Part shown: piece by piece, positions 3,443 through 41,958 of the stretch
Layout of the letters: every line of letters starts with the position of its first letter
Numbering within the stretch: the first letter of the stretch is position 1
Assembly (NCBI GenBank): GCA_030621225.1
Contig: JAUXIB010000001.1
Span: forward strand, 1,253-65,252
Length of the DNA: 64,000 nt
Direction of reading: 5' to 3'
Source: a candidate division FCPU426 bacterium
GTDB taxonomy: Bacteria; Oederibacteriota; JAUXIB01
Translations under genes and position numbers: made by a program
Notes under the pieces: generated by a model
Told to the model about the DNA's origin: nothing
The model's input: the letters and a program-made list of their open reading frames with translations, nothing else
The model's database searches: none

Positions 3443-3454
3443 GGGTGGGTACTG

Positions 3455-7149: not shown

Positions 7150-7240
7150 TTGTCGCGCGTCGCGTGTCTTGTGTCGTACGTCGCATGGACGCGTGACTCG
7201 TGACCCGTGACACGAGACACGTGATTAGCAGGATCGCATT

Positions 7241-12969: not shown

Positions 12970-13242
12970 TTGTTGTCGTGGGTTGTGGGTCGCGAGGCAG
13001 CTAAATAGTTTGTGGTTCGGGAGATGCTCTGAAGTATGAGTAAGGTAGTATCTAGTATCTAGTATCTGGTATCTAGTTTGGTTTCTAAACATTTAGCTGA
13101 GTGAGCCCTTCGACAATGCGCAGAACTAGATACCAAACGCTAACGACCAAAACAGCATACAGGAAAAAGCGCTACTTTAGCGGCAGACTATAGTGGTCGC
13201 AAGACGTTCGCGGCGAACGATGTGCGATATGCGAACAACGGG

Positions 13243-13659
13243 CTAAATATCCGAGAAGCGTCGATCCCAGAAGAGGAGGAAAAGGCCGTACCCTACTCCG
13301 AACAAGGCCAATGCTACCCAGAAGTATTTGGCGCAGGAGAGGTCAGTGTGAGGAAGTTTGATCTTTTCAAAGAAGATGCTCAAGATGCCATAGCTCAGGA
13401 TAACCAGGCCGTTAAACATCAGCAGTACGGAGATCATCAGTCCGGAGCACCTCTTGATCACAGCTAGCAGGAGAGAGGCGATGAGGAACAAGGCGCACAC
13501 GGTTAGCAGGGCGTACAGATAGGACGGCTTTTTTAGTTTGGCCGCTTCCTGAAGATAAAGGGTGACGATGACCAACACATTGGAGAATATCGCCAAGCCC
13601 ATGCTGATGAAAAAAGAAATCGTATGTTTCATTCGTTCGTTACTCATTTGTTCCCCCAT
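13243..13659 (-). CDS. Hypothetical small membrane protein.
   Basis: 138 aa with four predicted TM helices. Confidence 0.35.
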   Translation of the reverse strand: MGEQMSNERMKHTISFFISMGLAIFSNVLVIVTLYLQEAAKLKKPSYLYALLTVCALFLIASLLLAVIKRCSGLMISVLLMFNGLVILSYGILSIFFEKIKLPHTDLSCAKYFWVALALFGVGYGLFLLFWDRRFSDI

Positions 13660-13833
13660 AAATTATATACGCTAGGATTATAGAAAAAAGCCGGGGAATA
13701 GTCAATGATTTCGTGGAGGCATGTTTCGTGGAGGCAGGAAAGCAAGGCGGCGGGACAAGTCGTTGAACGTCAGTATAAAGCGACGTTAGACCTTTGGCGT
13801 TCAGACGCTAGGGGAATGTAAGTCGAACGTCTA

Positions 13834-15171
13834 ATGTCAAATGTCAGCATAAAGTTAAAAGATATGGTAATGGACGAGCAACGAGCAACGCATGTCCGCC
13901 ATAGCTTCGGCGATGGCGGAAGTAACGGGCAACGAAACAGCAAGCCGCTCACGGTGAGTGAGCTAAATTTGCTTGTTAAGGGGAGCGTGGAGTTGGCTTT
14001 CCCCCAGATATGGGTAGAAGGCGAGATATCGAACTTTAAGCACCACGTTTCCGGCCATATGTACTTTACGCTTAAGGACGAGCGTTGCCAGTTGCGTTGT
14101 GTGATGTTTCGCGGGGTAAACAGCCGTCTCGTTTTTACTCCCGCTGACGGTATGAACGTCCGGGCGTGCGGTGGAGTGACCATTTACGAGGTGCAGGGGA
14201 GTTATCAGCTCAACATTAGAGAAATGGAACCGGCAGGTGCCGGCGCTTTGCGGCTGGCTTTTGAAAAGCTCAAGCGCAAGCTTGATGGGGAAGGTCTTTT
14301 TGCCGTCGAGCGCAAGCAGCCGCTGCCCAGCTTGCCCCGTGCTGTGGGTGTCGTTACTTCGCCGGGCGGCGCGGCTATTCGCGATATGTTGCGCGTATTT
14401 GAGTTGAGACGGCTGGGGTTGCCGGTCCTGTTGTATGGTGTGCCGGTGCAGGGGAGAGACGCGGCGCAAAAGATAGCCGGGGCGATAGAGACGCTGAACG
14501 AGCTGGGGGAGGTGGACGTGGTGATCGTTGGCCGCGGCGGTGGTTCTTTGGAAGACCTGTGGTCTTTTAACGAGGAAATAGTCGCCAGGGCAATAGCCGC
14601 GTCGCGCATCCCGGTGGTTTCCGCGGTGGGTCACGAGATAGATTTCACCATATCGGATATGGTAGCTGACTTGCGCGTGCCTACTCCTACCGCGGCAGCC
14701 GAGGCCGTCTGTGACGGGATGGAGGAGCTACGCCTGGAGCTGAGGCAGAGAAAGGGGCGATTGCGTGACGTCTTGGTGCACCTGGTGCAGTTAGCGCGGG
14801 CTCGTTTGCTAGCGGCCCGGCCGGAACGTCTGCGCCAGGTCTGGGACAACTATTGCCAGTCGCGTTACCGCGAGCTGGACGGATTGCTTGAGCGGCTGAT
14901 CGTGGCGCCGGTTTCTTTGCTGAAGGAGAAAACGCATCGTCTGGCCGAATTGCGGGCGCGTCTGGCGCCGTTGGGACCCGCAGACGTTCTGCGGCGCGGC
15001 TATAGCATTACAACGCGGGCGGTGGACGGGAAAGTGATTTCCGACGCGGCGGAGGTGGGTATCGGAGAAAAACTAAGAGTGAGGTTGCATAAGGGAGAGT
15101 TGGGGACGAAGGTGGAGCGGGTAGATCGAAACGGCGAATCGGCGAATCGGCGAGACGGCGAGGATGACTAG
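13834..15171 (+). CDS. xseA: Exodeoxyribonuclease VII large subunit. The start is uncertain because the first ~30 codons overlap a dispersed repeat.
   Basis: OB-fold N-terminus LTVSELNLLVKG...HMYFTLKD, and a catalytic core VVTSPGGAAIRDM...VGHEIDF. Confidence 0.8.
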   Translation: MSNVSIKLKDMVMDEQRATHVRHSFGDGGSNGQRNSKPLTVSELNLLVKGSVELAFPQIWVEGEISNFKHHVSGHMYFTLKDERCQLRCVMFRGVNSRLVFTPADGMNVRACGGVTIYEVQGSYQLNIREMEPAGAGALRLAFEKLKRKLDGEGLFAVERKQPLPSLPRAVGVVTSPGGAAIRDMLRVFELRRLGLPVLLYGVPVQGRDAAQKIAGAIETLNELGEVDVVIVGRGGGSLEDLWSFNEEIVARAIAASRIPVVSAVGHEIDFTISDMVADLRVPTPTAAAEAVCDGMEELRLELRQRKGRLRDVLVHLVQLARARLLAARPERLRQVWDNYCQSRYRELDGLLERLIVAPVSLLKEKTHRLAELRARLAPLGPADVLRRGYSITTRAVDGKVISDAAEVGIGEKLRVRLHKGELGTKVERVDRNGESANRRDGEDD

Positions 15172-15249
15172 CTCTGAGTTATTAGATATGAAATTCGTGT
15201 CCCGAATTCCGAGCCGCGAAATACGAGGTGCGAATAGAGGAGAAAACGA

Positions 15250-15483
15250 ATGCCGAAAGAAGACTTTGATAAACTCAGCAAAGAGTTAGCGGGGATAGTT
15301 GACGAATTGGAAAAGGGCGAAGTAGGCTTGAGTGAAGCGCTGGAGAAATTCAAGAAAGGCACCAAGCTTGCTGAACGCCTGGATACTATTCTCAAGGGTA
15401 CGCAGCAGAAGGTGGAGTTGTTGTCCAAGGAGTTAGACGGCAAGTTGAAGCGGCAGGAGTTTACTGCCGAGAAAGAAGAATGA
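15250..15483 (+). CDS. xseB: Exodeoxyribonuclease VII small subunit.
   Basis: 77-aa helical protein with FEKLSKELAGIVDELEKGEVGLSEALEKFKKG. Confidence 0.75.
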   Translation: MPKEDFDKLSKELAGIVDELEKGEVGLSEALEKFKKGTKLAERLDTILKGTQQKVELLSKELDGKLKRQEFTAEKEE

Positions 15484-15688
15484 GTTATGAATTCTGAATT
15501 ATGAATGCTGAATTGGAAATGCGAACCACTGCTGAATCAGGGCTAACTTCCGGGGCTTTTAATTCTTAACGGAATGTCCTAGCTAACGGTAGTGGTTATA
15601 ATGCATATGGGCCCAAAAACAAATGACTTGACATGCCTTACAATGGGAGTACAATTCTGCTACTATATATATCAGAGGGGAGAACGTC

Positions 15689-16234
15689 ATGCCTGTTACA
15701 ACATGCACAAACATTAATCCACTGTTCACCACAGCGCAAGTGCTTTCGCTTTGCGGCAGCATACTGCTTGCTGGCGGTGGTGCAATATGGGTAGTGCGGG
15801 GAATGTTGGCAAAGATCGAAAAAAACATGGGTACGATCGAAGGCAATATTCGTAGCGATATAGGAAACTTAGAGCTGGATATTAGCACCGTGAAGTCTTG
15901 GTTGGGTAGTTTGCTGGTGAACCTAGAAGGCAAGATAAACAAGACCGCCTTGGCTGATTTAAAGAGACGCTTGGTTGTGAAAGTCACCGCAACGGGCAAT
16001 CCAATATCAAAAGAGCAGGCAGACAAGATTCTTTCCTACCTCGATAGAGTCGGAGCAAAGAAAACGTTTACCCCGGAGGAAGCTTCTGATTTCCAACTTT
16101 TGATTGAGTCCTATGTTACCGATGACGGGGTAAGGGAGAAATACGCCAAGCGACAGAGTGAGCTAGATATTCTCTCAACGATTGCCGGTTCAATCTACAG
16201 CGAATACTACTTAAAGGCGACCGTCAAGAAATAG
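15689..16234 (+). CDS. Hypothetical protein carried as an IS passenger, with an N-terminal TM helix and coiled coil.
   Basis: 181-aa ORF with a GAGGGGAG ribosome-binding site. No recognisable domain. Confidence 0.35.
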   Translation: MPVTTCTNINPLFTTAQVLSLCGSILLAGGGAIWVVRGMLAKIEKNMGTIEGNIRSDIGNLELDISTVKSWLGSLLVNLEGKINKTALADLKRRLVVKVTATGNPISKEQADKILSYLDRVGAKKTFTPEEASDFQLLIESYVTDDGVREKYAKRQSELDILSTIAGSIYSEYYLKATVKK

Positions 16235-16244
16235 CGTAAGGTTT

Positions 16245-17180
16245 CTATTTCTTTGGTCTTATCTTCTCCTCCTCTTTCCACTCCAGCAATAGTTCATAGT
16301 TATCTCCGCACTTGGGCAGTGCTCGTTGGATCAGCCTATACATTGATCCCCATGTCGAGCTAGCCTTCATGAAGCTAATGACTGTATGAATATGCCGCTG
16401 CAAGGCAGGATGCCCTATGTTTTCGGTTAGCCTTTGGTGATAGCGGTGTTTCCTTCTGCCCTTGTCGTCCTTCGGGGTAACACGGCGTAGCTCTGTCAAT
16501 ACACCAGGGGCTAGTCTTTCGTATACGAGATCATTAGTGAACCTGCCAACAACGGATGGTTTTGCTATTTTATTGCCACGCCATTCCCAGTTTCTTAGTC
16601 TGAACATTTCCTTGTAGAACTCATCGGGAAATTGTTTTTCCCATGCCAGCAATTCCTTACTGATAAAGTTCTCCAACACCTTCTGCAAAGCGGATCGAGT
16701 TCGATGATCCTGATATCCCGTAATCTCGTCTATCAAGGCTATGATCCCGACCTTTGCCAAGCCACGAACTACGATCTCTGCCACTTTGGCTATGTGTTGT
16801 TGCTGGTGATGTAGTTTTTCATCTTCTCTGGCTCTTAGAATTGAATCACAAAGCTCTACCAATACGGTCGCTTCATAGCCAACACCGAAAAGGCCTTTGG
16901 GAGTGACGAATGGGATCGGATTCTTGATCACCTCCCTTAATTTTTCGCTAATGTAGGGCTGGAGCGACTTTCCGGCGATAAACTTGGTTAATCTATCCCC
17001 CTTGATCCGCTTATCTCCAGTACCCGGAGACATACCTAGCGTCTTGATCATTCCTGTCTTAGCCAGTACCCGTCTTCCATCTTCGAGTACATAACACGGC
17101 AACTCAAAATCTTTAACCATAAGAGGGTTAGCCGGATCACCAAAAATCGCTTTCATTGCTACTTGTGGTTTATTGGTCAT
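16245..17180 (-). CDS. P63C-domain protein (phage-associated family) carried as an IS passenger.
   Basis: The 311-aa product resembles the P63C family. It overlaps the transposase gene by 4 bp. Confidence 0.45.
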   Translation of the reverse strand: MTNKPQVAMKAIFGDPANPLMVKDFELPCYVLEDGRRVLAKTGMIKTLGMSPGTGDKRIKGDRLTKFIAGKSLQPYISEKLREVIKNPIPFVTPKGLFGVGYEATVLVELCDSILRAREDEKLHHQQQHIAKVAEIVVRGLAKVGIIALIDEITGYQDHRTRSALQKVLENFISKELLAWEKQFPDEFYKEMFRLRNWEWRGNKIAKPSVVGRFTNDLVYERLAPGVLTELRRVTPKDDKGRRKHRYHQRLTENIGHPALQRHIHTVISFMKASSTWGSMYRLIQRALPKCGDNYELLLEWKEEEKIRPKK

Positions 17181-18052
17181 TGAGTGCCTCCCATAGCGTT
17201 TTTGATAGTTAAGTCGAATACTTCTACATCGTCTCTGTGATTGTGCCGATAGCAGAACTCTCGCACATATTTGTTAAGGTGCTTCACGCTCACCTTGTGA
17301 TATTGACCAACAATGCCTCGTTTGAGCAACGCCCAAAAGCTCTCGATATTGTTGGTGTGGATGTCTCCATCGACATAGCACTTCCCGTGGTCAACCACCT
17401 TGTGGTCGATTATCTCCTGCATGCGAAAATAGCTATTGTATTGGTCGGTCATGAGTACAGCATCATCCCTATCTATATTGCCCCGCACTAGCGTTGATAA
17501 TTTCTTGTAACTTAGCTTGGTCGCCTTCTGCGCCCGAACCCTCCCGCCTCTTTCCATCATGCCAACTACTGGTGTTTTCTTAGTACCACGCCCACGCTTC
17601 CTAGGGCCGCCCTTGGTTTTACCGTCACCGCCTTTGCGAGGCTTCCCGCCGATGTAAGTTTCATCCATTTTTGCGATTCCCCGGAGTAGATCGTTGTCAT
17701 CAAACATGGCCCTGCGAATCCGCATGCCCATATACCATGCCGTGTTGCGGTTGACTTCGATGTCTCTCGCTAGTTGCCGGGAACTGATGCCTTTCTTGGC
17801 ATTGAGGATTAAGCTGATAGCAAGAAACCATTTCTGTAAATCAGCCTTGGTCTTGTGGAAGATGGTCGCAACCGTTACGCTATAGGTGGTCTTGCAGTTG
17901 TTGCAGTGATGCCGATGTCCTTTCTTATAGCTTGTGGTATTATGAGATTTGCAGTAAGGGCATTGCGGTTTGCCGTTCCAGCGAACCTTCTCAAGATAAG
18001 CTATGCAAGCATCTTGGGTGGGGAACTGTTTGTAAACCTGGATGATATTCAT
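17177..18052 (-). CDS. IS1595-family transposase with an N-terminal zinc ribbon and an ISXO2-like DDE domain.
   Basis: N-terminus CPYCKS...CNNCKTT. The core contains ISSRQLARDIEVNRNTAWYMGMRIR. Confidence 0.8.
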   Translation of the reverse strand: MNIIQVYKQFPTQDACIAYLEKVRWNGKPQCPYCKSHNTTSYKKGHRHHCNNCKTTYSVTVATIFHKTKADLQKWFLAISLILNAKKGISSRQLARDIEVNRNTAWYMGMRIRRAMFDDNDLLRGIAKMDETYIGGKPRKGGDGKTKGGPRKRGRGTKKTPVVGMMERGGRVRAQKATKLSYKKLSTLVRGNIDRDDAVLMTDQYNSYFRMQEIIDHKVVDHGKCYVDGDIHTNNIESFWALLKRGIVGQYHKVSVKHLNKYVREFCYRHNHRDDVEVFDLTIKNAMGGTQ

Positions 18053-18185
18053 TGTCGTCTCCTTTAGTTGTTGCTACCGTTAACTAAGACGATTATATCA
18101 TCAGGAGATTGGATGTCAAGAGAAATCGTAAAGTATTTTGCTACCTTTAACTAGGACATTCCGATTCTTAATTACAACTCATAAT

Positions 18186-19466
18186 TCAGAGAATCCGTCT
18201 CGCCTTGACAAACCGTTTTTGGTAGTAACTCCCGCTGAAATTTGAACGGGTAACGCCCTTGGAGCAGGAGGCATGGGCGAATTTTCCCTCGCCTACGTAG
18301 ACCCCCACGTGTGAGATGCGGCCGCGGAATTTCATGTCAAAGAAGACCAAGTCACCAGCTTGAAGTTTAGTGCGTTCCACCTTTCTTCCCACCCGCGCTT
18401 GCCGGCGGCTGTTGCGTGGTAACTCTATATCCAGGTCGCGGTAAACAGCGCGAGTGAAAGCCGAACAGTCAATACCCCGCTTGTCCTCGCCGCCGAATTT
18501 GTAGGGGACACCCAGCCATTTAGTTACCGCGGTTTTTAACGCGGCGAAGGGAGTCGATTTGCTACGGCGTTTTTTTGCGGATCGAGCCTGCGCTTTTTGT
18601 ACTATTTTTTCCTCCTGTTGCAGGCGCCGGGAGGTTCTCTTCTTATAATTGGATTGTCGCTGGCGTGATACTATCTTTTCTTGGCGTTGTATTTTTTTCT
18701 TTAGCTTGGGGGATGGAGTGGGTTTTGTTTTGACGGTGCGCCGGAGTTCCTTTTTCTGTTTTTCCTGCTCTTGACGCAGGTGCTTTAGCTTGCGTTCGGC
18801 GGAGGAAAGAGGCCGCCAGCTCTTAGGATATAGCTGGCGCAGGGTACTGACCATGCGCAGGACTATTTCGTCAGCGTCTCGTTTCCCCTGGTCCACATCG
18901 ACCATCATCGCCAGTACGGCCTTTTCATCGTCCAGGCCGCGTTCTACGGCGTAGACCAACCCGCGACAAAGGACGGGCAACAGGCCCTGCCGCCAGTTAT
19001 ATTCCACTGAGTGCAGGATGAATTCGTTATAAACACGTGGCTTTACCGGGGAGTTTTTGAAGTCTTTGAGTGCGTTGGCGGCTTCCAGGATCTTTCCCGG
19101 TTTGACGACTAACCCGTATTCGGCCAGGTCTTCGGCTTCTTCGGCCGGGGCGCCGGCGAGTACGGCGGCAAAGACATTGGCGGCAAGCTGGCCGCAGTCT
19201 TCGAGAGGCATTTGCAGGTAAAGCCCGGTGCCGAGCACTGCCAGGGCTGAGTCATAAGGATAGGCCGTTTCCCGTTCCGGCGCCGGTAGGGAAGCAGTGC
19301 CGGATTTGAATCCTTTGGCAAACGATTTGTTCTGTCCGGAATTCAAGCCTACTTCTTTTTGAATTATCAGCTTTCGCATCGCGTCCCAGTGCGTTTGCGG
19401 CGGACAATATCCCGGCTGAGCCAGTCCCAAACTGACGGCGAGTAACAGGATGATCCTGAATATCAT
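18186..19466 (-). CDS. NlpC/P60 (C40) cell-wall peptidase with a Lys/Arg-rich central linker.
   Basis: The C-terminus GVPYKFGGEDKRGIDCSAFTRAVY...GDLVFF...HVGVYVG carries the Cys-His catalytic pair. The likely start is ATG at complement 19464-19466, with an AGGGAG ribosome-binding site and signal peptide MIFRIILLLAVSLGLAQ. Confidence 0.7.
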   Translation of the reverse strand: MIFRIILLLAVSLGLAQPGYCPPQTHWDAMRKLIIQKEVGLNSGQNKSFAKGFKSGTASLPAPERETAYPYDSALAVLGTGLYLQMPLEDCGQLAANVFAAVLAGAPAEEAEDLAEYGLVVKPGKILEAANALKDFKNSPVKPRVYNEFILHSVEYNWRQGLLPVLCRGLVYAVERGLDDEKAVLAMMVDVDQGKRDADEIVLRMVSTLRQLYPKSWRPLSSAERKLKHLRQEQEKQKKELRRTVKTKPTPSPKLKKKIQRQEKIVSRQRQSNYKKRTSRRLQQEEKIVQKAQARSAKKRRSKSTPFAALKTAVTKWLGVPYKFGGEDKRGIDCSAFTRAVYRDLDIELPRNSRRQARVGRKVERTKLQAGDLVFFDMKFRGRISHVGVYVGEGKFAHASCSKGVTRSNFSGSYYQKRFVKARRIL

Positions 19467-19741
19467 GATTGCTCCCTGGTTGCGTCTAACATCTGAACGC
19501 CTAAGGTCAAACGCCGCTTTATGCTGACGTTCGACCCGCCTTCGCCATGTTACGTGCAAAACATTAATGCTACGGCGTGGCATGCATTTGACGTTGGACG
19601 TTAGACTTGAATTATCTTGACCCAATAGTATCTCCCCCTGCGGTGGTTGTCAACAGCGGACACTACGGTGAACAAGCGATGTTAACGATTTCAATCACGA
19701 CGGATGTCTTGATGGTTGAAGAGCCGTGGTATAATCAGCAG

Positions 19742-20437
19742 ATGGCAATTGATAGGAAGAAGGCATACCATCGTACTTATGACTTGCTACTGAATCATTT
19801 CGGTTCGCGGCACTGGTGGCCGGCCAAGACGCGTTTTGAGGTGATCCTCGGCACCATCCTTACCCAGAATACCTCCTGGCATAACGCCTCGCGGGCGATA
19901 GCCAATCTGCGCGGCGCAGGAGTATTGAGCTATCGCGGCATGCAAGCGGTGCCGATAGCCCGTCTGCGGCGCTTGATCAAGCCCGCCCTTTATTTCAATA
20001 CCAAGGCCCGCTATTTAAAAAATATTCTCGCCTATATGCGGGCCAACGGTAACGGGAACCTGAAAGTATTTTTTCGCGGAAACGGGGAAGAACTCCGGCG
20101 ACGGCTCTTAACCGTTAAAGGGGTCGGCGAGGAGACCGCTGATTCCATTCTGCTTTACGCGGGTGAGCTACCTACTTTTGTGGTGGATGCCTATACGCGG
20201 CGGATCTTTTCGCGTCTTGGGCTGATGGCTGAGGACGTTAGCTACGCTGAGATGAAAGGCGAATTCGAAAACCACCTACCGCGGCGCGTAAAGTTGTATA
20301 ATGAATATCATGCGCTGATAACTACTTTTGGTCACCGCGTCTGCAAGAAACAGCCATTATGTGATCAGTGCCCGTTGCGGCGGGACAAGAGACTAACCAG
20401 TATGCTGAGGAGATCAAAAGGATGTCTGGCGAATTAG
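19742..20437 (+). CDS. HhH-GPD superfamily DNA glycosylase (endonuclease III-like) with a C-terminal Cys cluster.
   Basis: Motifs EVILGTILTQNTSW and VKGVGEETADSILLYAG, with a catalytic Asp in VDAYTRR, and CKKQPLCDQC. The start is uncertain; alternative ATGs lie at 19607 and 19712. Confidence 0.55.
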   Translation: MAIDRKKAYHRTYDLLLNHFGSRHWWPAKTRFEVILGTILTQNTSWHNASRAIANLRGAGVLSYRGMQAVPIARLRRLIKPALYFNTKARYLKNILAYMRANGNGNLKVFFRGNGEELRRRLLTVKGVGEETADSILLYAGELPTFVVDAYTRRIFSRLGLMAEDVSYAEMKGEFENHLPRRVKLYNEYHALITTFGHRVCKKQPLCDQCPLRRDKRLTSMLRRSKGCLAN

Positions 20438-21600
20438 AAAGCAACCCGAACCCCGAACACGGGACACGGGACGCGGGATATGGGGTCGGAGCAAACAACG
20501 ATTTGCGCCTGGTTTTTTGGGAAACTACGGCTGCCTGTAATTTGCACTGTCGGCATTGTCGTCGCTTGGATGATGTAGAGCAGGCGCTCGAGGATCAGCT
20601 GGATACGGCGCAGGCTAAGCGGCTTATCGACCAGATAGCTGAGCTGGCGGAAGCACAGGCAAGGCAGAAAGGACACGGGACACGGGACACGGGACACGGG
20701 ACGAACAAAGTCATTCTCGTTCTTTCCGGTGGCGAGCCTCTGATGCGGCAGGATGTTTTTGAGTTGGCCCGTTATGCGGTGAGTAAAGAACTGACCGTGG
20801 CCATGGCCACTAATGGCACGCCGGTGGACGAGGATAAGGCACGGCTGATCGCGGCATCGGGTATCAAGCGGGTAAGCGTCAGCCTGGACGGTGCGCTGGC
20901 TGAGACACACGATAATTTTCGTGGTGAACAGGGCTCGTTTGCAGGAGCGCTGCGTGGTTTTCGCCTGGTGAAGCAGGCGGGGGTGGAAGCGCAGATCAAT
21001 TTTTCGCTGGCCAAGCAGAATGAGCGGGAACTACCCCAGTTGTATGACCTGGCAGTGCGCGAGGGAGCGTGCGCGCTGCACATCTTTATGCTGGTGCCGG
21101 TGGGTTGCGGACTTGAGCTCAGCGAGGCGGACATGCTGAACCCAGATGACTATGAGCGGGTGATGGGTTGGATCTATGAGCAGAGCCGTTCGGGGAAGAT
21201 ACAGCTCAAGGTGACCTGCGGGCCGCACTATTACCGGGTGATCCGCGAGCAGGCCAAGCAGCGGGGCGAAGAACTCAACGTACAGACACACGGTATGGAG
21301 GCGGTAACCAGGGGCTGTCTGGGGGGTATTTCAGTCTGTTTTGTTTCTTCTTTGGGGGAAGTATTTCCCTGCGGCTATTTGCCCACGGCGGCGGGCAACG
21401 TCACCAAGCAGAGCTTGAAGGAGATATGGGAAAAATCCGAGGTGTTTCAGCAGTTGCGTGATTACAGCCTGCTGGAGGGGAAGTGCGGCGTTTGCGGTTA
21501 TCGCAAGGTCTGCGGCGGCTGTCGCGCGCGCGCTTACGCCAAGACCGGTAATATGCTCTCTGAGGAACCATTCTGCGCGTACATACCGAAGAGCAAGTGA
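20422..21600 (+). CDS. Radical SAM protein with a C-terminal SPASM domain; a peptide- or cofactor-maturase class.
   Basis: CNLHCRHC (CxxxCxxC), the SAM motif LSGGEPL, and SPASM cysteines CGPHYY...CGVCGYRKVCGGCRARAY. There are in-frame GHGTRD heptamer-repeat insertions. An alternative TTG start lies at ~20503. Confidence 0.75.
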   Translation: MSGELESNPNPEHGTRDAGYGVGANNDLRLVFWETTAACNLHCRHCRRLDDVEQALEDQLDTAQAKRLIDQIAELAEAQARQKGHGTRDTGHGTNKVILVLSGGEPLMRQDVFELARYAVSKELTVAMATNGTPVDEDKARLIAASGIKRVSVSLDGALAETHDNFRGEQGSFAGALRGFRLVKQAGVEAQINFSLAKQNERELPQLYDLAVREGACALHIFMLVPVGCGLELSEADMLNPDDYERVMGWIYEQSRSGKIQLKVTCGPHYYRVIREQAKQRGEELNVQTHGMEAVTRGCLGGISVCFVSSLGEVFPCGYLPTAAGNVTKQSLKEIWEKSEVFQQLRDYSLLEGKCGVCGYRKVCGGCRARAYAKTGNMLSEEPFCAYIPKSK

Positions 21601-21790
21601 AAAAGAGTTTTTTCCACCACAAAGACACAAAGAACACCAAGTATTCACGAAGAGGAGTTCCTTGGGTGTTCTCTTTGTGACCTTCGTGTCTTAGTGGTTA
21701 AAATACCTATTTTAAACCGGCTAAACCTTCCTACTTCAAATTTCGTTATACTATATATCAGGGGGTTAAGCCGGCTAAGAGGGAGTCCGG

Positions 21791-22375
21791 TTGGTGGATA
21801 AATCCATAGAATTATTAGTTAAGCAGGCCAAACAAGGCAATCCGGAAGCCTTTGAAAAGCTGGTAGTGCTCTACCGGCAGAGGATCTATCGTGTGGCTTT
21901 CCGCGTGGTGCGGGAGAAAGAAAGCGCGTTGGATGTGGCCCAGGAAGTTTTTATCAGAGTCCATGCTGAGTTAAAGAACTGCCGGGGAGAGGCGGCTTTT
22001 GAGGGGTGGCTCTATAGGTTGGTTACTAATCTTGCTATTGACCATTATCGTCGGGCCAGGAAGCGCCGCTGCCTGTCTCTTTTTAAGGACTTTGCGGGAA
22101 AGGAAAGCCCGGAGCGCGTTTTAGAGGCCGGCCGGGCGAACGAGCGGCTGGGCAGAGCCTTGGATAGCTTGACTGACCGCCAGCGGCAAATATTTGTGCT
22201 GAAGCATTATCAGGGATTGAGCATCGTCGAGATCGCCGGGGTGATCCGCGCGGCGGAGGGAACGGTGAAAGCTACGCTGCATCAAGCGGTTGGTAAGATG
22301 AGGAATTTTTTGCTGGATGAAGCTAAAAGGGACGCGGGACCCGGGACACGGGACTCGGGACCCGCAAAGGGTTGA
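21791..22375 (+). CDS. ECF sigma factor.
   Basis: Region 2 (GWLYRLVTNLAIDHYRRARKR) and region 4 (LSIVEIAGVIRAAEGTVKATLHQAVGKMR). The C-terminal tail is encoded by a CACGGGA-type repeat. Confidence 0.8.
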   Translation: MVDKSIELLVKQAKQGNPEAFEKLVVLYRQRIYRVAFRVVREKESALDVAQEVFIRVHAELKNCRGEAAFEGWLYRLVTNLAIDHYRRARKRRCLSLFKDFAGKESPERVLEAGRANERLGRALDSLTDRQRQIFVLKHYQGLSIVEIAGVIRAAEGTVKATLHQAVGKMRNFLLDEAKRDAGPGTRDSGPAKG

Positions 22376-22376
22376 C

Positions 22377-23399
22377 ATGGACTGCGACAAGGTAAAAGAA
22401 AGACTAGCACTCTACTTCTACGGCGAGAGTGGCGGTGAAACGCGAGCCATAAAGGCACATCTGAAAAAATGCCCGGTTTGTCGTAGTGAGTTTGCGGAGC
22501 TGAAGCAAGTCGGGAAGCTGGCGGACGGGATGGAGATACCGCCGGTGGGCGACGGGGAATGGGTCCGTTTTGCTGACAATGTGCGGCAGGGCATCGTTTC
22601 CCGCCCGCTACACGGGCGTTTTCTGCGTCCCCTTGTGCTTTGGCCTGCTCTGGCCGCGGCCGCGGCGGCGTTTATTTTGCATCTTCAGTTTACTCCCGCG
22701 GAGAAGATAAGCGGCGAGACCGTACCTGTTTGTGGTGATCAGCTGGCCCTTGCCGAAGATAGCTCGGCTGAAGAGTCGGCGGCGCGAGTGGGGGCCGCCG
22801 CGGAGTTTCAACTGAGCGAGCCAACGAAGAAGCAAGCGCCGCGGATAGAGCTTGCCGCGCAGGCGCCGGCTGCGATGGAAAAAGACGAGGAAACCGCTCA
22901 GGTTGTCCGGGAGCCAGAGTTCGCTTCTGGAGAAACGATCGATCAGCGACCGTTGGGGTTCGTTCGGCCGGGAGCGGCGCTGCCGGGACCAGCGGCAATG
23001 GACGCCGCCGGGACCACACAGCGTCCCGTCGCTGTCGCGAGCTGCAAAGATGGTAAGGGGGACGACGCAGGGGATATCCCCCGCCCGGAACCGACGGCAA
23101 GCGCTACGCCGTTGAGAGACAGGATAGTCTTGAAAAATAATAAGATAAACCCGTTATTGGGAGATAAGGCGACCATCGTTTACCGTTTGCCGGAAGGTGG
23201 CCGCGTACGTCTGGCGGTCTATAACAGCCTGGGGGAACTGATGCTTGTCCTCTATCAGGGAGAGAGGAATGCCGGGACGTTTGAAGAGTACTGGGAAGGC
23301 GCCAATCGGGCGGGTGCTGTGGTTAGCGCCGGCATCTATTTTGTTAGTATTGAAACGCCCTCCTATAACGAGCGGCGTAAGATAGTAGTGGTAAAGTAG
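22377..23399 (+). CDS. Anti-sigma factor with a zf-HC2 domain, one TM helix, an acidic Ala/Pro-rich linker, and a C-terminal T9SS-type (FlgD-Ig-like) sorting domain.
   Basis: HLKKCPVCRSEF motif and TM helix LVLWPALAAAAAAFILHL. The C-terminal ~85 aa (NNKINPLLGDKATIVYRL...VYNSLGEL...WEGANRAG..SAGIYFVSIET...KIVVVK) align with the C-termini of four neighbouring proteins. Confidence 0.65.
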   Translation: MDCDKVKERLALYFYGESGGETRAIKAHLKKCPVCRSEFAELKQVGKLADGMEIPPVGDGEWVRFADNVRQGIVSRPLHGRFLRPLVLWPALAAAAAAFILHLQFTPAEKISGETVPVCGDQLALAEDSSAEESAARVGAAAEFQLSEPTKKQAPRIELAAQAPAAMEKDEETAQVVREPEFASGETIDQRPLGFVRPGAALPGPAAMDAAGTTQRPVAVASCKDGKGDDAGDIPRPEPTASATPLRDRIVLKNNKINPLLGDKATIVYRLPEGGRVRLAVYNSLGELMLVLYQGERNAGTFEEYWEGANRAGAVVSAGIYFVSIETPSYNERRKIVVVK

Positions 23400-23412
23400 C
23401 CAGGGGATCACC

Positions 23413-25746
23413 ATGCGTTTCTCAAGCAGAATACTTATTATCACCTGTTTCGTTCTGTTGCTGGTCGCCGGTAAAGCAGAAGCATATACCGTGGTATTTC
23501 CTGATCCTAACCTTGAGGTGGCGATAAGAAGTGCGATCGGGAAACCCGTGGGTGATATAGATAATACCGAGCTCATCGGTCTCACCACGCTAACTGCTTC
23601 TTATAGCGGTATCGCCGATCTGACCGGGTTAGAGGAATGCGTGGATCTTATATACATAAACTTCTGGGGTAATTCAATATCCGACATTAGCCCGTTGTCT
23701 GGTCTGAGCAACTTGCAGGGCCTTCTTTTTCGAGATAATTCCATTAGTGATATCAGCGCACTGTCTGGGTTGATCAACTTACAGACCATTGGGTTCAACT
23801 CTAATTCCATTAGTGATATCAGCGCGCTGTCGGGGTTGACCAACTTACAGACCATTAGGTTCTACTCTAATTCCATCAGCGATATCAGCGCGCTGTCGGG
23901 GTTGGTGAACCTGACCGATGTTTGGCTCGAATGGAATGCCATCAGCGATGTAACTGCTCTAGTGGCGAATTGCGACGCGGGGGGGCTCGGTGCAGGTGAC
24001 GCTGTGTATATCAGGAACAATCCCTTGAGTGCCCAGGCCGAAAACGTTGATATACCATATTTGCAGGGCAAGGGTGTCTTTGTACAGTACGGGGATTATA
24101 CGATGACTACAACGCTAACGCTTACAGCTGCTATTTCCACCACTCATACTCCCACACCGACAAGCAGCGTCACCTCGACAGTTACTCCCACAGCGACAGT
24201 CAGCGCTACCTCGACAATCAGCGCAACGGTGACCCCAACCCAGCAGGTGGTTGTTTTTCCTGATAGTGGCTTGCAAGCGGCTGTCAGGAGCGCCATTGGT
24301 AAGCCGGCGGGGGACATATACAAGACGGACCTGATCGGACTTACTCTTCTGGACGCGCACGGCTCGGGTATCAGCGATCTGACCGGGCTGGAGGAATGCT
24401 CTGATCTAGCCAGCCTTTTTCTTGCCGATAACAGCATCGTTGATCTTGCGCCGCTCTCTGGGCTGGGTAATCTTACCTATCTGGAACTGTCCTCGAATTC
24501 CATTAGCGATCTTAGCCCGCTGGCCGGGTTGACGGGCCTGGGTAACCTGTTGCTGGACAGCAATTCTATTAGTGGGCTCGGACCGTTGAGCGGTTTGACC
24601 TCGTTGACCAACCTAACCTTGAGTGGTAACTCGATTAGTGACGCTACGGCCCTGGGTTCTCTTACGACCTTGAAAGGTCTGAATCTGAATAATAATTTAT
24701 TGGCAAACCTCGCGGCGCTTTCCGCGCTTACAGTGTTGACCAGTCTTTCACTGGATGACAACTCTGTAAGTAATGTAAGTCCGCTTGCTGCGCTGACGGA
24801 GTTAACCAGTCTGGGGCTGAATGCTAATTCCCTAGCGGATATTTCCGCTTTGTCCGGGCTGATCAAGCTGACCCAGTTATATCTGCAGGAAAATTCTATA
24901 GTTGATATCAGTTCCTTGGCGGGGCTGCTCAAGTTAGATAATCTTTTGTTGAGGAATAATTCTATCAGTGAAGTGAGCTCGCTGGTGACGAACTGTGACG
25001 CGAGCGGTCTAGAGGGAGGCGACTGGGTGGATTTGCGGGGGAATCCCTTGGAGTCGCAGGCGTTGAATACGGATGTTCCCTATTTGCTAAGCAAGAGCAT
25101 CAACGTGATGTATGACCTTCCCCCGACGCCAACGCCAACGCCGACAGTGCGCTTGTCGGTAACGGTGCGGGCCTGTCCGGGGCAGGAAGATTATCTCCAG
25201 TTGCGCATGAGTTCTATTGACGCTTCATTCGTGGATTGTGATAGCGCTTACTTCCAAGTATATCTGCAAGCTTCTGCGGGGGTTCCGCTGAGCGTGAGCG
25301 CGGCAGCCGGTGACGGTAAAAGTTGTTGGGCGCGTTACTATCCTGAGCCTGGCTGGCGGGATATCGACGTTGTCTACGCTTATGCCAGGGACGACGAAGG
25401 TTCCTGGGGTGTGTCTAACGGAAGTTTCCAGCGGGAAATATGCTCGGAAGGCGGGGCAGTCATGCGCAACAACAAGATATATCCGCTTAAGAACGATCAG
25501 CCCGTGGTGGTGCAGTTTAACGCCAAGGGGCGATGCCGTGTTGCTGTCTATAACCAGGCCGGCGAGGTGGTGGCGGGCCTGCTGGGGGACGGCAGCGCCG
25601 CTATGATCTCGTTATCTGAGGGTACACACCAGGTTAGCTGGGGCGGGGAATCACGGATCGGGTCGTTGGTGTCAAGCGGCATATATACCATTGTGGTAGA
25701 GACCCCGGATTACGTGAAGAAGTTTAAGGTGGTTGTGATCAAGTAG
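23413..25746 (+). CDS. Secreted leucine-rich-repeat protein with two LRR modules, Thr/Ser/Pro linkers, a conserved pre-CTD domain and the CTD.
   Basis: Signal peptide, and 22-residue repeats of the form NSISDIS.LSGL.NL. It has a duplicated N-cap (VVFPD..L..A.RSAIGKP) and the C-terminal KFKVVVIK sorting domain. Confidence 0.7.
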   Translation: MRFSSRILIITCFVLLLVAGKAEAYTVVFPDPNLEVAIRSAIGKPVGDIDNTELIGLTTLTASYSGIADLTGLEECVDLIYINFWGNSISDISPLSGLSNLQGLLFRDNSISDISALSGLINLQTIGFNSNSISDISALSGLTNLQTIRFYSNSISDISALSGLVNLTDVWLEWNAISDVTALVANCDAGGLGAGDAVYIRNNPLSAQAENVDIPYLQGKGVFVQYGDYTMTTTLTLTAAISTTHTPTPTSSVTSTVTPTATVSATSTISATVTPTQQVVVFPDSGLQAAVRSAIGKPAGDIYKTDLIGLTLLDAHGSGISDLTGLEECSDLASLFLADNSIVDLAPLSGLGNLTYLELSSNSISDLSPLAGLTGLGNLLLDSNSISGLGPLSGLTSLTNLTLSGNSISDATALGSLTTLKGLNLNNNLLANLAALSALTVLTSLSLDDNSVSNVSPLAALTELTSLGLNANSLADISALSGLIKLTQLYLQENSIVDISSLAGLLKLDNLLLRNNSISEVSSLVTNCDASGLEGGDWVDLRGNPLESQALNTDVPYLLSKSINVMYDLPPTPTPTPTVRLSVTVRACPGQEDYLQLRMSSIDASFVDCDSAYFQVYLQASAGVPLSVSAAAGDGKSCWARYYPEPGWRDIDVVYAYARDDEGSWGVSNGSFQREICSEGGAVMRNNKIYPLKNDQPVVVQFNAKGRCRVAVYNQAGEVVAGLLGDGSAAMISLSEGTHQVSWGGESRIGSLVSSGIYTIVVETPDYVKKFKVVVIK

Positions 25747-25884
25747 ACGGCATACCCTACTTCGCTCTTTCGGAGCTTCGTAGAGCAAGCAGGATACGGG
25801 ATACAGGAAACCGGAAGCAGGATAAGGAATTCTGAGTTCTGAATTATGAATTATGAATGAGGCAGGCAGGGGGAGGGAGCGGAT

Positions 25885-26322
25885 ATGAAAAAAGCATTTA
25901 GTGCTGCGATGGTTGTTGGTTTGTTGTTGGTCACTACTGCTATTGCGCACGAGCCTGCGAAGGAGCAGAAGGAGAAGCACTTGCGTGTAAACGCGCAGGC
26001 GAACGCCTTCCTGGCCAAGGAATTGGGTGTGCCGCTGGCGGCGATACAGAACGCGCGTGGTATGGATTATCCCTTTAGCAATACGCTTTTCTTTGCGGTG
26101 GTGATTTCTCAGACCAGGGGCAAGGCAAAGATGAAGGACGTGGTTGTGCTCAGCGAAGCGGGGAGAAGCTGGGGGGAGATCTGTGAGCAGTATGGGTTGG
26201 ATTACGAGGTAATGGTTACGGAGAGAAGACGTGTTCTTAAGAGGATGCGGCAGGCAGGGATCGAAGTACCCGGTGTAACGGACGAGGAGTGGCAGAAATT
26301 ATTTGATTTAAAACCGGAGTGA
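25885..26322 (+). CDS. Small secreted protein of an unknown family; paralog of the gene at 28754.
   Basis: Signal peptide. The motifs VNAFLAKELGVPLAAI and DYPFS..FFFAVV.SQ.KGKAKMKDV are shared with the paralog. Confidence 0.5.
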   Translation: MKKAFSAAMVVGLLLVTTAIAHEPAKEQKEKHLRVNAQANAFLAKELGVPLAAIQNARGMDYPFSNTLFFAVVISQTRGKAKMKDVVVLSEAGRSWGEICEQYGLDYEVMVTERRRVLKRMRQAGIEVPGVTDEEWQKLFDLKPE

Positions 26323-26328
26323 TTTGGC

Positions 26329-28608
26329 GTGAGAATTTTTGTTCTGACAACGATTTTTTTGTTATTTCCAGTGTTAACAGGCTGGGCAATCCCGGTTTAT
26401 AACGGTGACACCCTCACCGATGATGACTGGCCGATGTTTGGCGGAAATATCCATCATACAGGGGTCGGCAAGGACCTGCCCAACTTTAAGAGTATGCAGC
26501 TCTGCGGTCAGAGATCGTTGGGGGGAGGATGGATAAAAAGCCAGCCGATAGCTGTGGCGGGAAGACTTTACGCTAATACGGAAGGGGGCTACACATACAG
26601 CTTGAATATCCATGATCTGAGCGCTCCGCCCTACTGGGTCAAAAACGTGGGCGGGGGTGTTTTTACCTCTCCTTTGTATTACAAGGGTAATGTTTATATT
26701 TTGGATCGTAATTCTCAGTTGTCGGCGTTTGACATTGACGGTAACTTGCTATGGACTTATACGGGTACCGCCAGTTATTATGCCAATCAGAACTCTCCCA
26801 TCGCTGCTAATGGCGTCATTTATTTCGGTGATATGATGGGAATAGTTTATGCGATAAATACGGATGGCACCCTCCGCTGGGGTAGGGCGCTGTATGATCG
26901 CGTACATACTGAAGCGGTCTATGATGTTGAGCGGGAACGTATTTACATCGGAGCTTCCAGCGGCAAGATTTATGTTCTGGATGCAGGGGACAACCCCGCT
27001 ACCTGGGGCAAGGTGGTTGGGATGGATGATATAGGAGGAGACATGCTTTATGGGGGCCTGTCTTTTTACAAGGGTGCTACATCGGCGGATGATAAGGTGA
27101 TCAGCGGCGGGGAGGACGGTCATGTGCATTCCTTTCGGGCGGAGCCCTTTGCTTTTTTGGATTCGTACGCTACTGGCGGTACCATTACTGCCGCCCCGGC
27201 TATCAAGGACGGTAGGGTTTATGTGGCCTCAAATTCGCATCGTGTCTATGGGCTTGACCTGTTAGCTGACGGTAGCTTTGCTGATGTATGTTATTCATTG
27301 AGCAATAATAATTATCCCAAACAGAGCCCCTGTATTATAGTAGCCTGTGAAATTATTGCTTCCGGTTGCCATGGGGACAGGGTTATTATGCGGTGTACGG
27401 ACTGTGAAACAGTGTGGTATGAGGATACTACCGCGGATACATGGGGGGGCTTGATATCGCACGAGGGGAAGATCGCGGTGACCGGCAAGAACGTGATCTT
27501 CACTTATTGCCCGGTGCTCGATATCCCTACGCTTACAGCAAGTATGACCTCTACTGTTACGCCCAGCGTGACTCCGACCGCCAGTCCCACTGCTACTATT
27601 AGCGCCAGTATTACCGCCAGTGTCACCCCCAGCATGACACCCAGTGCTACCCCTACCTTTACCTCCACTGTAACTTCTACTGCCACTGTTACCATAACCG
27701 CTACTGCTACCGTAACCGTCACCGGTACCTGGACAGAGACCGGCACGGTTACCAAGACCAGTACCGACACACTGGTGTTTACTCCCACTAATACTCTTAC
27801 TGTGACCGGTACTAACACTTTTACTTTGACCTGTACTGATAGTGTTACGCTTACCGATACGCCTACGGCAAGTCCGAGCCATACTTCTGTTGCTACGTTT
27901 ACCGACACGCCTACGGCAAGTTCGAGTCATACGCCCAGTGCTACGCGGACGGTTACTCCGACAGCTACTCTCACTGGCACCATGACTCCTTCTTCTACCG
28001 CAACTTTTACTATTACCTGTGAGGTGGAACCACCACAGCTATCGGTAAAGGTGGTCTTTGACCCGGAGCGCTCGGATGATCTGATGCTGATCATGAAGTC
28101 CTCCGAGCCGGTGGATTGCTCCCAAAGCTATTTCGAAGCCTATCCGCATTCGTATCCACGGGATAAGCGGGAGTGCCGTGAGGTCACCCAGGTGGACGAG
28201 ACCACCTGCCAGTGCTACCTGCCGCGCGAGGTGGGATTCGGTGATCTCGCTAAAGTCTACGCTTATGCCGTTGATCACTGCGGCAACCAGGGGGTCTCTG
28301 ACGGGGAGTTTGAGCTGGAGGTGATCCCGGATTCGGGAGTGGTGATAACCAGCAACAAGATCCGTCCGGGAAGCTGCGCCGGGATAATCTACCAGCTGGA
28401 GGACGCGACGCGGGTGGAGATAAAGATCTACAATCTGGCCGGGGAACTGATAAAGGTGATCCAGAACGGCAATCAGCCGGCGGGACGTTACCAGGAAGAA
28501 TGGTGCGGAGGTAACCAGGCAAATGAATTTGTGGCCAGCGGTATTTATGTCGTATATATACGCACGGATTTCTACGAGGTGACGGAGAAGATAGTGGTGC
28601 TGAAATAG
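26329..28608 (+). CDS. Secreted PQQ-repeat beta-propeller protein with a ~170-aa Thr/Ser-rich linker, a Cys-containing conserved domain and the CTD.
   Basis: GTG start with signal peptide. The N-terminus has the DDDWPMFGGNIHHTG motif and repeated Y.G.....YALD propeller blades. The TS-rich region spans 27.53-28.02 kb, and the gene ends KIVVLK. Confidence 0.7.
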   Translation: MRIFVLTTIFLLFPVLTGWAIPVYNGDTLTDDDWPMFGGNIHHTGVGKDLPNFKSMQLCGQRSLGGGWIKSQPIAVAGRLYANTEGGYTYSLNIHDLSAPPYWVKNVGGGVFTSPLYYKGNVYILDRNSQLSAFDIDGNLLWTYTGTASYYANQNSPIAANGVIYFGDMMGIVYAINTDGTLRWGRALYDRVHTEAVYDVERERIYIGASSGKIYVLDAGDNPATWGKVVGMDDIGGDMLYGGLSFYKGATSADDKVISGGEDGHVHSFRAEPFAFLDSYATGGTITAAPAIKDGRVYVASNSHRVYGLDLLADGSFADVCYSLSNNNYPKQSPCIIVACEIIASGCHGDRVIMRCTDCETVWYEDTTADTWGGLISHEGKIAVTGKNVIFTYCPVLDIPTLTASMTSTVTPSVTPTASPTATISASITASVTPSMTPSATPTFTSTVTSTATVTITATATVTVTGTWTETGTVTKTSTDTLVFTPTNTLTVTGTNTFTLTCTDSVTLTDTPTASPSHTSVATFTDTPTASSSHTPSATRTVTPTATLTGTMTPSSTATFTITCEVEPPQLSVKVVFDPERSDDLMLIMKSSEPVDCSQSYFEAYPHSYPRDKRECREVTQVDETTCQCYLPREVGFGDLAKVYAYAVDHCGNQGVSDGEFELEVIPDSGVVITSNKIRPGSCAGIIYQLEDATRVEIKIYNLAGELIKVIQNGNQPAGRYQEEWCGGNQANEFVASGIYVVYIRTDFYEVTEKIVVLK

Positions 28609-28753
28609 CTCGAAGGAATTCTGAATTCTGAGTTATGAATTATGAAAACGGTGGTCAGTGAGCAGCTTGCCCAGAGCGTACTAACGCGAATGGTACAGGG
28701 ATACTAGATACGAGATACTGGCATCGCCTAAAGGTAAGTGTGGGAGGAGCACT

Positions 28754-29209: not shown

Positions 29210-29288
29210 GAAAGACTGTTTTACTCATAGTCTGCACCCGGTAACACGGTGCATACGGGCTAGACTAACCAAATTACGGATCACGACG

Positions 29289-31376: not shown

Positions 31377-31640
31377 CTCGAAGGAATTCTGAATTCTGAG
31401 TTATGAATTATGAAAACGGTGGTCAGTGGTCAGTGGTCGGTGGATGGTGGTCAGTGAGCAGCTTGCCCAGAGCGTACTAACGCGAATGGTACAGGGATAC
31501 TAGATACGAGATACTAGCATCAAGTCTCGAGTTCTGGAAAAGAGTAACCAAGAGGTAAAAAACATCACAGTAGGGGCGTCCCTCTGCGGGCGCCCCTCGC
31601 CCAAAGGGCGAGTAGAGCCAAAAACCAAAGCGTCTCGATA

Positions 31641-41886: not shown

Positions 41887-41958
41887 AGTTTGTCGCGGGT
41901 CACGGGTCGCTGGTTGCGTGTCCGGCGGCAGAGAGTGACGCACGATACGAGACAAGAC

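Follow-up and report, generated by a model that had tools for sequence, protein, structure and literature searches.

Why should a tandem repeat with a unit of seven nucleotides (nt), which is not a multiple of three, lie within the reading frames of a conserved enzyme and of a sigma factor? The question is raised by a 64,000-nt stretch of DNA from a candidate division FCPU426 bacterium (Oederibacteriota; assembly GCA_030621225.1, contig JAUXIB010000001.1, positions 1,253 to 65,252), which is called the window below. A first-pass annotation, made from the letters and their open reading frames (ORFs), had pointed out GC-rich heptamer runs at the junction of a DNA glycosylase gene and a radical S-adenosylmethionine (SAM) enzyme gene, within the radical SAM gene, and in the C-terminal tail of an extracytoplasmic function (ECF) sigma factor. 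It had proposed a mobile or slippage-prone repeat that might behave like a contingency locus. We examined these runs, whose unit is GGGACNC, together with the rest of the window and contigs of relatives. Our preferred explanation, to which we give a probability of roughly 0.6, is that the three runs, tolerated in disordered parts of proteins, belong to a population of heptanucleotide tandem arrays found throughout the lineage, and that the insert within the enzyme is old and fixed.

Three GGGACNC arrays and their host genes

Direct reading and Tandem Repeats Finder (TRF) located all three runs where they had been described, each made of head-to-tail 7-nt units in at least three copies on the forward strand. 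Array 1 (20457..20478; 3.1 copies of ACACGGG) reads ACACGGG ACACGGG ACGCGGG A and passes into TATGGGG, with the G-tract motif extending to 20485. It begins 20 nt past the glycosylase stop codon and forms codons 12-19 (EHGTRDAG) of the radical SAM ORF. Array 2 (20671..20702) is a perfect run of 4.6 copies of GGACACG inside the radical SAM gene, between the motifs CNLHCRHC and GGEP. It is translated as KGHGTRDTGHGTN, in which 11 residues, GHGTRDTGHGT, derive from the repeat; the 18-residue translation GHGTRDTGHGTRDTGHGT given for it earlier was wrong. Array 3 (22329..22364) holds 5.1 copies, GGGACGC GGGACCC GGGACAC GGGACTC GGGACCC G, and makes up residues ~180-191 of the 194-residue sigma factor, ending 9 nt ahead of the sigma stop codon and 13 nt ahead of the anti-sigma ATG.

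The glycosylase gene (19607..20437, forward strand; stop codon at 20435-20437) encodes an HhH-GPD protein according to Pfam PF00730 and NCBIfam, and overlaps the start of the radical SAM gene by 16 nt. The latter (20422..21600, forward strand; ATG at 20422), which carries arrays 1 and 2, encodes a protein with Pfam Radical_SAM and SPASM domains that resembles heme b synthase, AhbD. All 339 of the 339 positions of model TIGR04545 were matched with 437.7 bits; because this score is under the curated NCBIfam cutoff of 500, we call the gene ahbD-like. Its product has the CX3CX2C radical SAM motif, the GGE motif and the SPASM domain, with C39, C43, C46 and G104-E105-P106 invariant, and the exact protein was found in a public protein collection (P0001; homologs are referred to as P0002 to P0004). 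The ECF sigma factor gene (21791..22375, forward strand; stop codon at 22373-22375; Pfam Sigma70_r2 and Sigma70_r4_2) carries array 3 in its tail, and comparison with the ortholog suggests that its likely start is the GTG at 21794. One nucleotide past the sigma stop codon, at ATG 22377, begins the anti-sigma factor gene (22377..23399, forward strand), which encodes a zf-HC2 domain and an FlgD-Ig / T9SS-type C-terminal domain. The remaining window is ordinary chromosome, with genes for Rho, ComEC, BacA, M42 peptidase, XseA, release factor 2 (RF2), 3-dehydroquinate synthase and UvrD.

Heptanucleotide arrays across the window

The runs noticed at first turned out not to be a local oddity: heptamer arrays of other units, which had gone unnoticed, fill the intergenic regions of the whole window. 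Nine exact period-7 runs were found against none in shuffled sequences, while every other period from 2 to 15 gave zero or one. When mismatches were tolerated, 16 period-7 arrays were detected against 0-1 at periods 4-12. The total came to about 35 period-7 arrays with many different units, including GTATCT-N, GAATT-N-T, GATAC-N-A, GTGGTCA, ACGCTAT and ACTAGAT (examples lie at 324-354, 13046-13077, 25827-25858, 28616-28646, 31384-31456, 37745-37776, 44457-44485, 46001-46033 and 62182-62759). About 27 of the 35 are intergenic, although intergenic sequence makes up only ~14% of the window, and array 2 is the only one that sits deep within a gene. Many lie within 0-40 nt of a stop codon, and others precede a start codon by 10-60 nt; the recurrence of the repeat at gene junctions was borne out. 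By TRF, the density of period-7 arrays per 10 kb was 4.5 in the window and 7.9 in a contig of a relative (L001), compared with 0.48, about 10-fold lower than the window, in control loci comprising 1.23 Mb of ahbD-centred sequence from 79 genomes of other phyla.

L001 is syntenic with the window (577-11185 with 11047-21600). The orthologous spacers of both hold heptamer arrays, but their units differ, indicating that intergenic arrays turn over. Inverted pairs of arrays form predicted hairpins between convergent genes in both, at 7150-7224 in the window and at 4745-4844 in L001. The window pair (7150..7224; GTCNCGN ... GACNCGT) lies between the ComEC and BacA genes, where 5.3 copies of GAC[N]CGT at 7188-7224 pair with inverted units at 7150-7185 into an imperfect hairpin (-38.9 kcal/mol, z-score -2.1). 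This run had been listed as an intergenic relative of the three arrays, and it is real; a second one, at 41893..41912 on the forward strand, amounts to only ~3 imperfect units of GTC[G/A]CGG, starting 6 nt past the 3-dehydroquinate synthase stop codon and falling under the TRF score threshold.

In several arrays, six positions of the unit are fixed and the seventh is occupied by three or four different bases. Such arrays are 22329-22364 (GGGAC[G/C/A/T/C]C), 7188-7224 (GAC[G/T/C/A/A]CGT) and 324-354 in the window, and 3150-3178 in L001. The concentration of mismatches at one unit position had a P value of ~0.014, which is partly driven by a few arrays.

Tandem repeats of other periods were also observed. 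The 3' coding end of xseA contains an 8-mer array of CGAAACGG, in 4.4 copies in the window (15127-15161) and 3.1 copies in L001 (4367-4391), and several further 8-mer arrays occur in L001, two of which (8787-8810 and 9261-9284) are reverse complements of each other. Just 3' of the ahbD-like stop codon, at 21600-21700, an imperfect long inverted repeat of CACAAAGA-type 8-mers was seen by eye, which from its sequence is likely a terminator-like hairpin; a similar pair of 8-mers, CACCAAGA / TCTTGGTG, occurs in L001. A 37-nt repeat with the unit CTCCGGACACTCCAATATTAAATAGAGTAAGGCCGGT occurs in about four tandem copies of 85-87% identity at 8327-8484, within the 468 nt that separate BacA from the following gene. 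As it has no spacers, it does not resemble a clustered regularly interspaced short palindromic repeat array. The region at 15689-18052, between xseA and an NlpC/P60 gene, holds three genes, one of them for a phage-type P63C-domain protein (16245-17180, reverse strand), and is possibly a small inserted island, since it is absent from the syntenic region of L001.

The insert in the AhbD-like enzyme

Codon alignment with canonical homologs placed array 2 in an insert of 57 nt, corresponding to 19 codons, E77-N95 (20650..20706, forward strand), with 21 nt of non-repeat sequence 5' of the heptamer array. Eight of the codons lengthen helix alpha1 and 11 are derived from the heptamer. The lengthening of this loop by ~20 residues suggested earlier agrees with the ~19 residues found in comparison with homologs, but eight of these are not repeat. 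We surveyed the distance from CNLxCxHC to GGEP in the best 120 homologs, 118 of which could be scored. The spacing was 36-39 residues in 113 of the 118, and lengths of 56, 56 and 68 residues were found only in P0001, P0002 and P0004.

An AlphaFold model built with 60 sequences had a mean predicted local distance difference test score (pLDDT) of 84 and a predicted template modelling score of 0.86. The pLDDT fell below 50 only at residues 1-23, which include array 1, at residues 88-93, which belong to array 2, and at residues 228-230. In the model, the insert lies between the helix of residues 62-82 and the strand of residues 98-102, that is, in the alpha1/beta2 loop. From the general architecture of radical SAM enzymes, this loop would be on the barrel face distal to the active site. 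The insert has the appearance of a surface loop that the protein tolerates, and the low-confidence segments into which the repeat is translated are probably disordered, as the first-pass annotation had anticipated.

An N-terminal extension ahead of the conserved LRLVFWE motif is present in 90 of the best homologs listed, with a mean length of 38 residues and 8.5% histidine. Because such an extension is typical of the family, ATG 20422 is the likely start codon and array 1 is likely translated.

Conservation of the internal array among relatives

Contigs from three relatives contain the orthologous gene. At the site of array 2, L001 (78% protein identity) has 4.9 copies of GGGACAC, and L003 (72%) has GGACACG GGACAC, 37 nt of other sequence, and then GGACACG GGACACG GGACA. 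L002, the nearest relative by identity (79-81%), has the canonical short loop and no array 2. Equivalent non-repetitive loops in orthologs, which the earlier proposal had named as counter-evidence, thus occur in one close ortholog and in nearly all distant ones, but two orthologs share the repeat. The 37-nt block of L003 was considered as a hairpin or miniature inverted-repeat transposable element and rejected; its folding was no better than that of shuffled sequences (z = 0.22), and it was found nowhere else in 208 loci.

Third-codon-position identity among these lineages is ~0.48, and only 45-51% of the codons for identical residues are identical, so that synonymous sites are saturated. In array 2, however, nine of the ten comparable codons are identical between the window and L001, and likewise between the window and L003 (binomial P ~0.006 per comparison, by our calculation from the codon-alignment counts). 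Judged by these alignments, the unit of array 2 is conserved at the nucleotide level, and the number of units is equal in the window and L001.

The history of the insert was less regular. In a neighbour-joining tree, the insert-less P0003 is sister to P0001, yet P0003 keeps the ancestral 'RP' before beta2. When identity was compared along the gene to look for recombination, P0001 in the segment upstream of the insert was identical to the insert-bearing orthologs at 41/49 and 39/49 positions and to P0003 at 38/49, a gap too small for significance. At the start of ahbD, each lineage has its own heptamers: GGGAC[A/G]C in the window, three copies of GAGTCCC (GGGACTC read on the opposite strand) in L001, ACCAGCA / AACGAGC in L003, and a decayed trace in L002. 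The sigma factor of L002, 75% identical to that of the window, is without the array tail and 14 residues shorter.

Distribution of the unit elsewhere

The sequence GGGACNCGGGACNCGGGACNC, three units of GGGACNC, was found in at least 120 Joint Genome Institute metagenome contigs; among the matches listed, GGGACTC dominates in contigs of 60-76% GC. In one contig of 45% GC (L088, 1-2763), the intergenic regions consist almost wholly of arrays in which CGGGAC[A/G] and CGTGAC[A/G] units are intermingled, which supports the link between GGGACAC and CGTGAC runs that had been drawn before. These arrays are punctuated by AAAATT or AAAAAC and accompanied by CGTAAAT and TTTTTAA arrays, and three unit families are common to L088 and the window. 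Another contig, of 54% GC (L091), has a valyl-tRNA synthetase gene (791-3598, reverse strand) with in-frame GAGTCCC arrays at 2199-2223 and 3474-3503, and a third array in the spacer upstream of the gene, at 3659-3686. With two in-frame arrays in this gene, translation-tolerated copies in housekeeping genes recur.

Long translated expansions are another matter. A search of 5.8 billion proteins with the peptide (GHGTRDT)x6 returned only 21 ORFs of 32-73 residues without domains, and no long translated expansion in domain-bearing proteins, which speaks against the earlier idea of length-variable disordered inserts. We are not aware of a prior description of the GGGACNC unit, and a literature search for the unit sequence gave nothing relevant.

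Translatability and G-quadruplex potential

None of the six reading frames of GGGACNC and its complement contains a stop codon; the residues that they specify are G, T, R, D, H/L/P/R and S/T/P/A. The heptamer is thus a real 7-nt tandem unit that tolerates translation, as first described, and it can persist in ORFs because it is free of stops in six frames and yields small polar residues (G, T, R, D, H/L/P/S). Most other families of the window (GAATTAT, TAGTATC, ACTAGAT, TAAAAAT) contain stop codons, and every array embedded in coding sequence there is stop-free on the sense strand. Since some open units stay intergenic, the lack of stops is a necessary filter rather than a full explanation.

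All three arrays match the G-quadruplex (G4) consensus (G3+N1-7)3G3+ on the sense strand, in the canonical form (G3N4)3G3; the motif of array 1, at 20461-20485, has four G-tracts. With the G-quadruplex option of ViennaRNA, a quadruplex is predicted in the minimum-energy fold of array 2 (-16.2 vs -11.5 kcal/mol). A hairpin of -25.7 kcal/mol is preferred for array 3 and a conventional stem for array 1, with no quadruplex in either minimum-energy fold. The window as a whole has seven G4 consensus motifs on the forward strand, where most of its genes lie, and none on the reverse strand, a total that is not above the Markov expectation of ~4.

These features raise the question of whether the GGGACNC arrays are functional nucleic-acid elements, selected as G4s in RNA or DNA or as sites of a heptad-reading protein, and tuning the transcription, translation or coupling of ahbD and of the sigma/anti-sigma pair. 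Such a role would fit the predicted quadruplex of array 2, the position of the array 3 hairpin 13 nt ahead of the anti-sigma start, the conservation of the internal unit in three lineages at saturated synonymous sites, the 4-5 G-tracts per array, as in G4-forming GGGNATC repeats (PMC4692102), and the arrays in which all four bases occur at one unit position and six are fixed. It fits poorly with the orthologs, which have non-G-rich or inverted units at the N-terminal junction (ACCAGCA in L003, GAGTCCC in L001), and with L002, which is without array 2 and the sigma-tail array and has at most a decayed trace of array 1. Moreover, the valyl-tRNA synthetase arrays of L091 are C-rich on the sense strand, and most arrays of the window are AT-rich and without G4 potential. 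In ahbD genes of 79 other genomes, six sense-strand G4 motifs were found in 84 kb, all of them elsewhere, and no G4 is conserved at the alpha1/beta2 loop. We regard a nucleic-acid role as possible but rather unlikely.

G-quadruplexes bind hemin, and a bolder form of this idea can be framed. The (GGACACG)4 run in ahbD would be a selected G4 or heptad protein site through which the final enzyme of the siroheme-dependent heme pathway is controlled, and feedback by heme could result; more broadly, unit families that have one free position and six fixed ones would constitute a lineage-spanning cis-regulatory code read by a protein. We consider this improbable, and any link between G4 and heme synthesis is speculative, because the ahbD homologs of the 79 genomes show no conserved G4 at the loop.

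Changes in unit number and stability of the arrays

Direct evidence of unit-number change in this genome came from GTGGTCA rather than GGGACNC. An array of 5.4 copies at 31419..31456 (forward strand) corresponds to 1.4 units at 28647-28657 in a paralogous flank, and the gap between them is exactly 28 nt, or four units. The two flanks, 3' of paralogous leucine-rich repeat genes (28560-28770 and 31328-31580), are identical over the aligned ~190 nt apart from this gap. The description of the repeat as slippage-prone therefore holds for heptamer arrays of this genome, which change by whole units, but such a change was not seen for the GGGACNC arrays.

The genes flanking these sites belong to a run of five large paralogs of ~750-790 residues (23413-25746, 26329-28608, 29133-31376, 31729-34104 and 35229-37523), which follows directly downstream of the sigma/anti-sigma pair (23413-37523). 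Only the first of them (23413-25746) was confirmed to have leucine-rich repeats and an FlgD-Ig / T9SS-type C-terminal domain. Each of the first three is followed by a GAATTCT/GAATTAT heptamer array.

A unit of 7 nt invites the contingency-locus reading that had been put forward at first: the gain or loss of a single unit through slippage would put the gene out of frame, and in this way AhbD or the sigma factor would be turned off and on, or inserts of variable length would result. Perfect array 2 and the unit-number change at the GTGGTCA flanks are compatible with it, and heptanucleotide repeats are among those examined in a survey of phase variation in Haemophilus influenzae (PMC2651432). The comparisons made here lend this reading no support. 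Array 2 has the same number of units in the window and L001 in spite of saturated synonymous divergence, the arrays are limited to 3-5 units, and their host genes, for an AhbD-like enzyme and an ECF sigma factor, are housekeeping or regulatory rather than concerned with the surface, host interaction or restriction-modification. The 5.8 billion proteins gave no domain-bearing protein with a long (GHGTRDT)n stretch. Any one-unit change in the coding arrays would alter the reading frame and only three-unit changes would keep it, so the internal insert is not a switching element. We find the contingency reading unlikely.

Two independently assembled Logan contigs from run SRR14923484 were retrieved, one with the RF2 protein and one with the product of the longer ORF that starts at 22317. 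They are 100% identical to the window over 3.6 kb (22107-25736; contig L208), which includes the sigma-tail array, and over 3.1 kb (38270-41340), arrays included, and no copy-number variants of arrays were present over these stretches. The contigs cover neither ahbD array and probably derive from the same reads as the source assembly. Short tandem repeats are prone to mis-assembly, but the exact match excludes an assembler artefact for the arrays covered, and three assemblies, each from a different sample, have the same in-frame array at the same site. Artefacts of sequencing, a possibility named in the first-pass annotation, or of assembly are therefore hardly credible. The exact AhbD-like, sigma and anti-sigma (from ATG 22377) proteins were looked up in public assemblies, with none on record.

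The earlier suggestion of a mobile repeat was examined in the codon alignment. If GGGACNC repeats were carried to preferred sites by a small, non-autonomous mobile element or by a templated insertion cassette, this would account for one unit at three nearby sites, for its occurrence in distant lineages and at least 120 metagenome contigs, for a presence and absence of the insert among close orthologs that does not fit the tree, and for the extra 37-nt block within the L003 array. However, inspection of the insert boundaries revealed no terminal inverted repeats or target-site duplication, and both the number and the sequence of the units vary continuously from array to array. An Rfam scan of the whole window found one transfer RNA (tRNA) only, and no RNA family at the arrays. 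Mobility is thus a very improbable explanation.

Other features of the window

The RF2 gene, prfB, has a classical programmed +1 frameshift site, GGAGG followed by TAT CTT TGA C, at ~39299-39317, with an ATG near 39246 (region 39246-39320). The ORF listed at 39270-40340 is accordingly only the downstream frame of prfB. The RF2 protein is only 56-59% identical to its nearest named homologs, which belong to several phyla. The tRNA gene (57699-57772) is flanked by inverted repeats (57645-57698, a 26-nt arm pair, and 57566-57643) and by a TTCGAGA heptamer array, within the region 57566-57835.

Discussion

We propose that the GGGACNC runs are ordinary members of the heptamer population of this lineage that came to be tolerated within genes. 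Arrays would arise and change length by replication slippage, as expected from the known behaviour of simple-sequence repeats, and would accumulate where they do little harm; the accumulation itself, mainly in intergenic spacers and at gene ends, was observed here. A GGGACNC array may then survive in a reading frame when it lands in a disordered part of the protein, and the putative tolerated sites are the N-terminal extension of the AhbD-like enzyme, its alpha1/beta2 surface loop and the C-terminal tail of the ECF sigma factor. Array 2 is probably subject either to constraint on the DNA or RNA itself or to continuing homogenisation through slippage combined with purifying selection.

Several points weigh against this proposal. 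For this lineage, the DNA analysed comprises a single 64-kb window and a small number of short contigs. Simple neutral slippage fails to account for the codon conservation of array 2, where 9 of 10 synonymous-capable codons match between lineages that agree in only 47% of the codons for identical residues, or for the clustering of three GGGACNC arrays within 1.9 kb. Neither a simple loss nor a single gain of the insert fits the orthologs cleanly. The pattern of one free position per unit is suggestive and would be surprising under neutral slippage with subsequent random mutation. Finally, a few unit families (GATACNA, GAATTNT and GNGWCNC) are found repeatedly, both in several spacers and in lineages as distant as L088.

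These results extend heptanucleotide repeats, described earlier from cyanobacteria, Xanthomonas and Beggiatoaceae, to an uncultured deep-branching lineage. They also provide a clean case of a conserved enzyme in whose catalytic domain a heptamer repeat is fixed, the insert being present in some orthologs and absent from others. This pairing makes it testable whether such arrays are neutral slippage products or selected structures, and how proteins absorb them. For annotation, repeat-derived low-complexity inserts and the choice of start codons near arrays call for care.

Comparison with known systems

Phase-variable loci, such as the simple-sequence repeats of H. influenzae (PMC2651432), share with the arrays described here a tandem unit that is not a multiple of three and lies in or next to a reading frame. 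They differ in that the arrays here are short, reside in housekeeping or regulatory genes, keep their unit number across deep divergence, as seen for array 2 in the window and L001, and showed no copy-number variants over the stretches covered by the Logan contigs.

Heptamer repeats are over-represented in bacteria, and slippage has been proposed as their origin, in work as it is cited in PMC4679880 and PMC4692102. The short tandemly repeated repetitive heptamers of cyanobacteria and related 7-nt long simple-sequence repeats, also as cited there, resemble the arrays of the window in the excess of period 7, the presence of several unit families, the mainly intergenic location and the proposed slippage. 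In contrast to those accounts, the lineage here has no phylogenetic link to cyanobacteria and many more unit families per kilobase.

The TAACTGA direct repeats of marine Beggiatoaceae, Cyanobacteria and Bacteroidetes (MacGregor 2015, PMC4679880) are likewise heptamers whose unit is shared by distant lineages and of which a few copies are in ORFs. They occur in 2-6 copies clustered just upstream of start codons. One unit dominates there, whereas there are many here, and TAACTGA has stop codons in the forward orientation, whereas GGGACNC is open in all frames.

Closest in design are the G-rich heptamers GGGNATC of Xanthomonas and GGGGA(C/T)T of Nostoc PCC 7120, for which four units are preferred, G4 formation was found in vitro, and the location is mostly near gene ends and occasionally intragenic (Rehm et al. 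2015, PMC4692102). Our unit, GGGAC[A/G/C/T]C, does not match these consensus sequences; the host is an uncultured deep-branching bacterium, the G4 is a prediction, and one array lies in the middle of a catalytic domain, conserved at the nucleotide level in three lineages. In other respects the agreement with the repeats of PMC4692102 is close: a 7-nt unit made of a G-tract and a short loop, of 4 nt for G3 units, with about four units giving G4 potential; dispersed arrays, mostly intergenic near stop and start codons with a minority intragenic; inverted pairs at times between convergent genes; and one or two degenerate positions in the unit. The GGGACNC arrays belong to a class already known, the heptamer repeats of bacteria (PMC4692102, PMC4679880).

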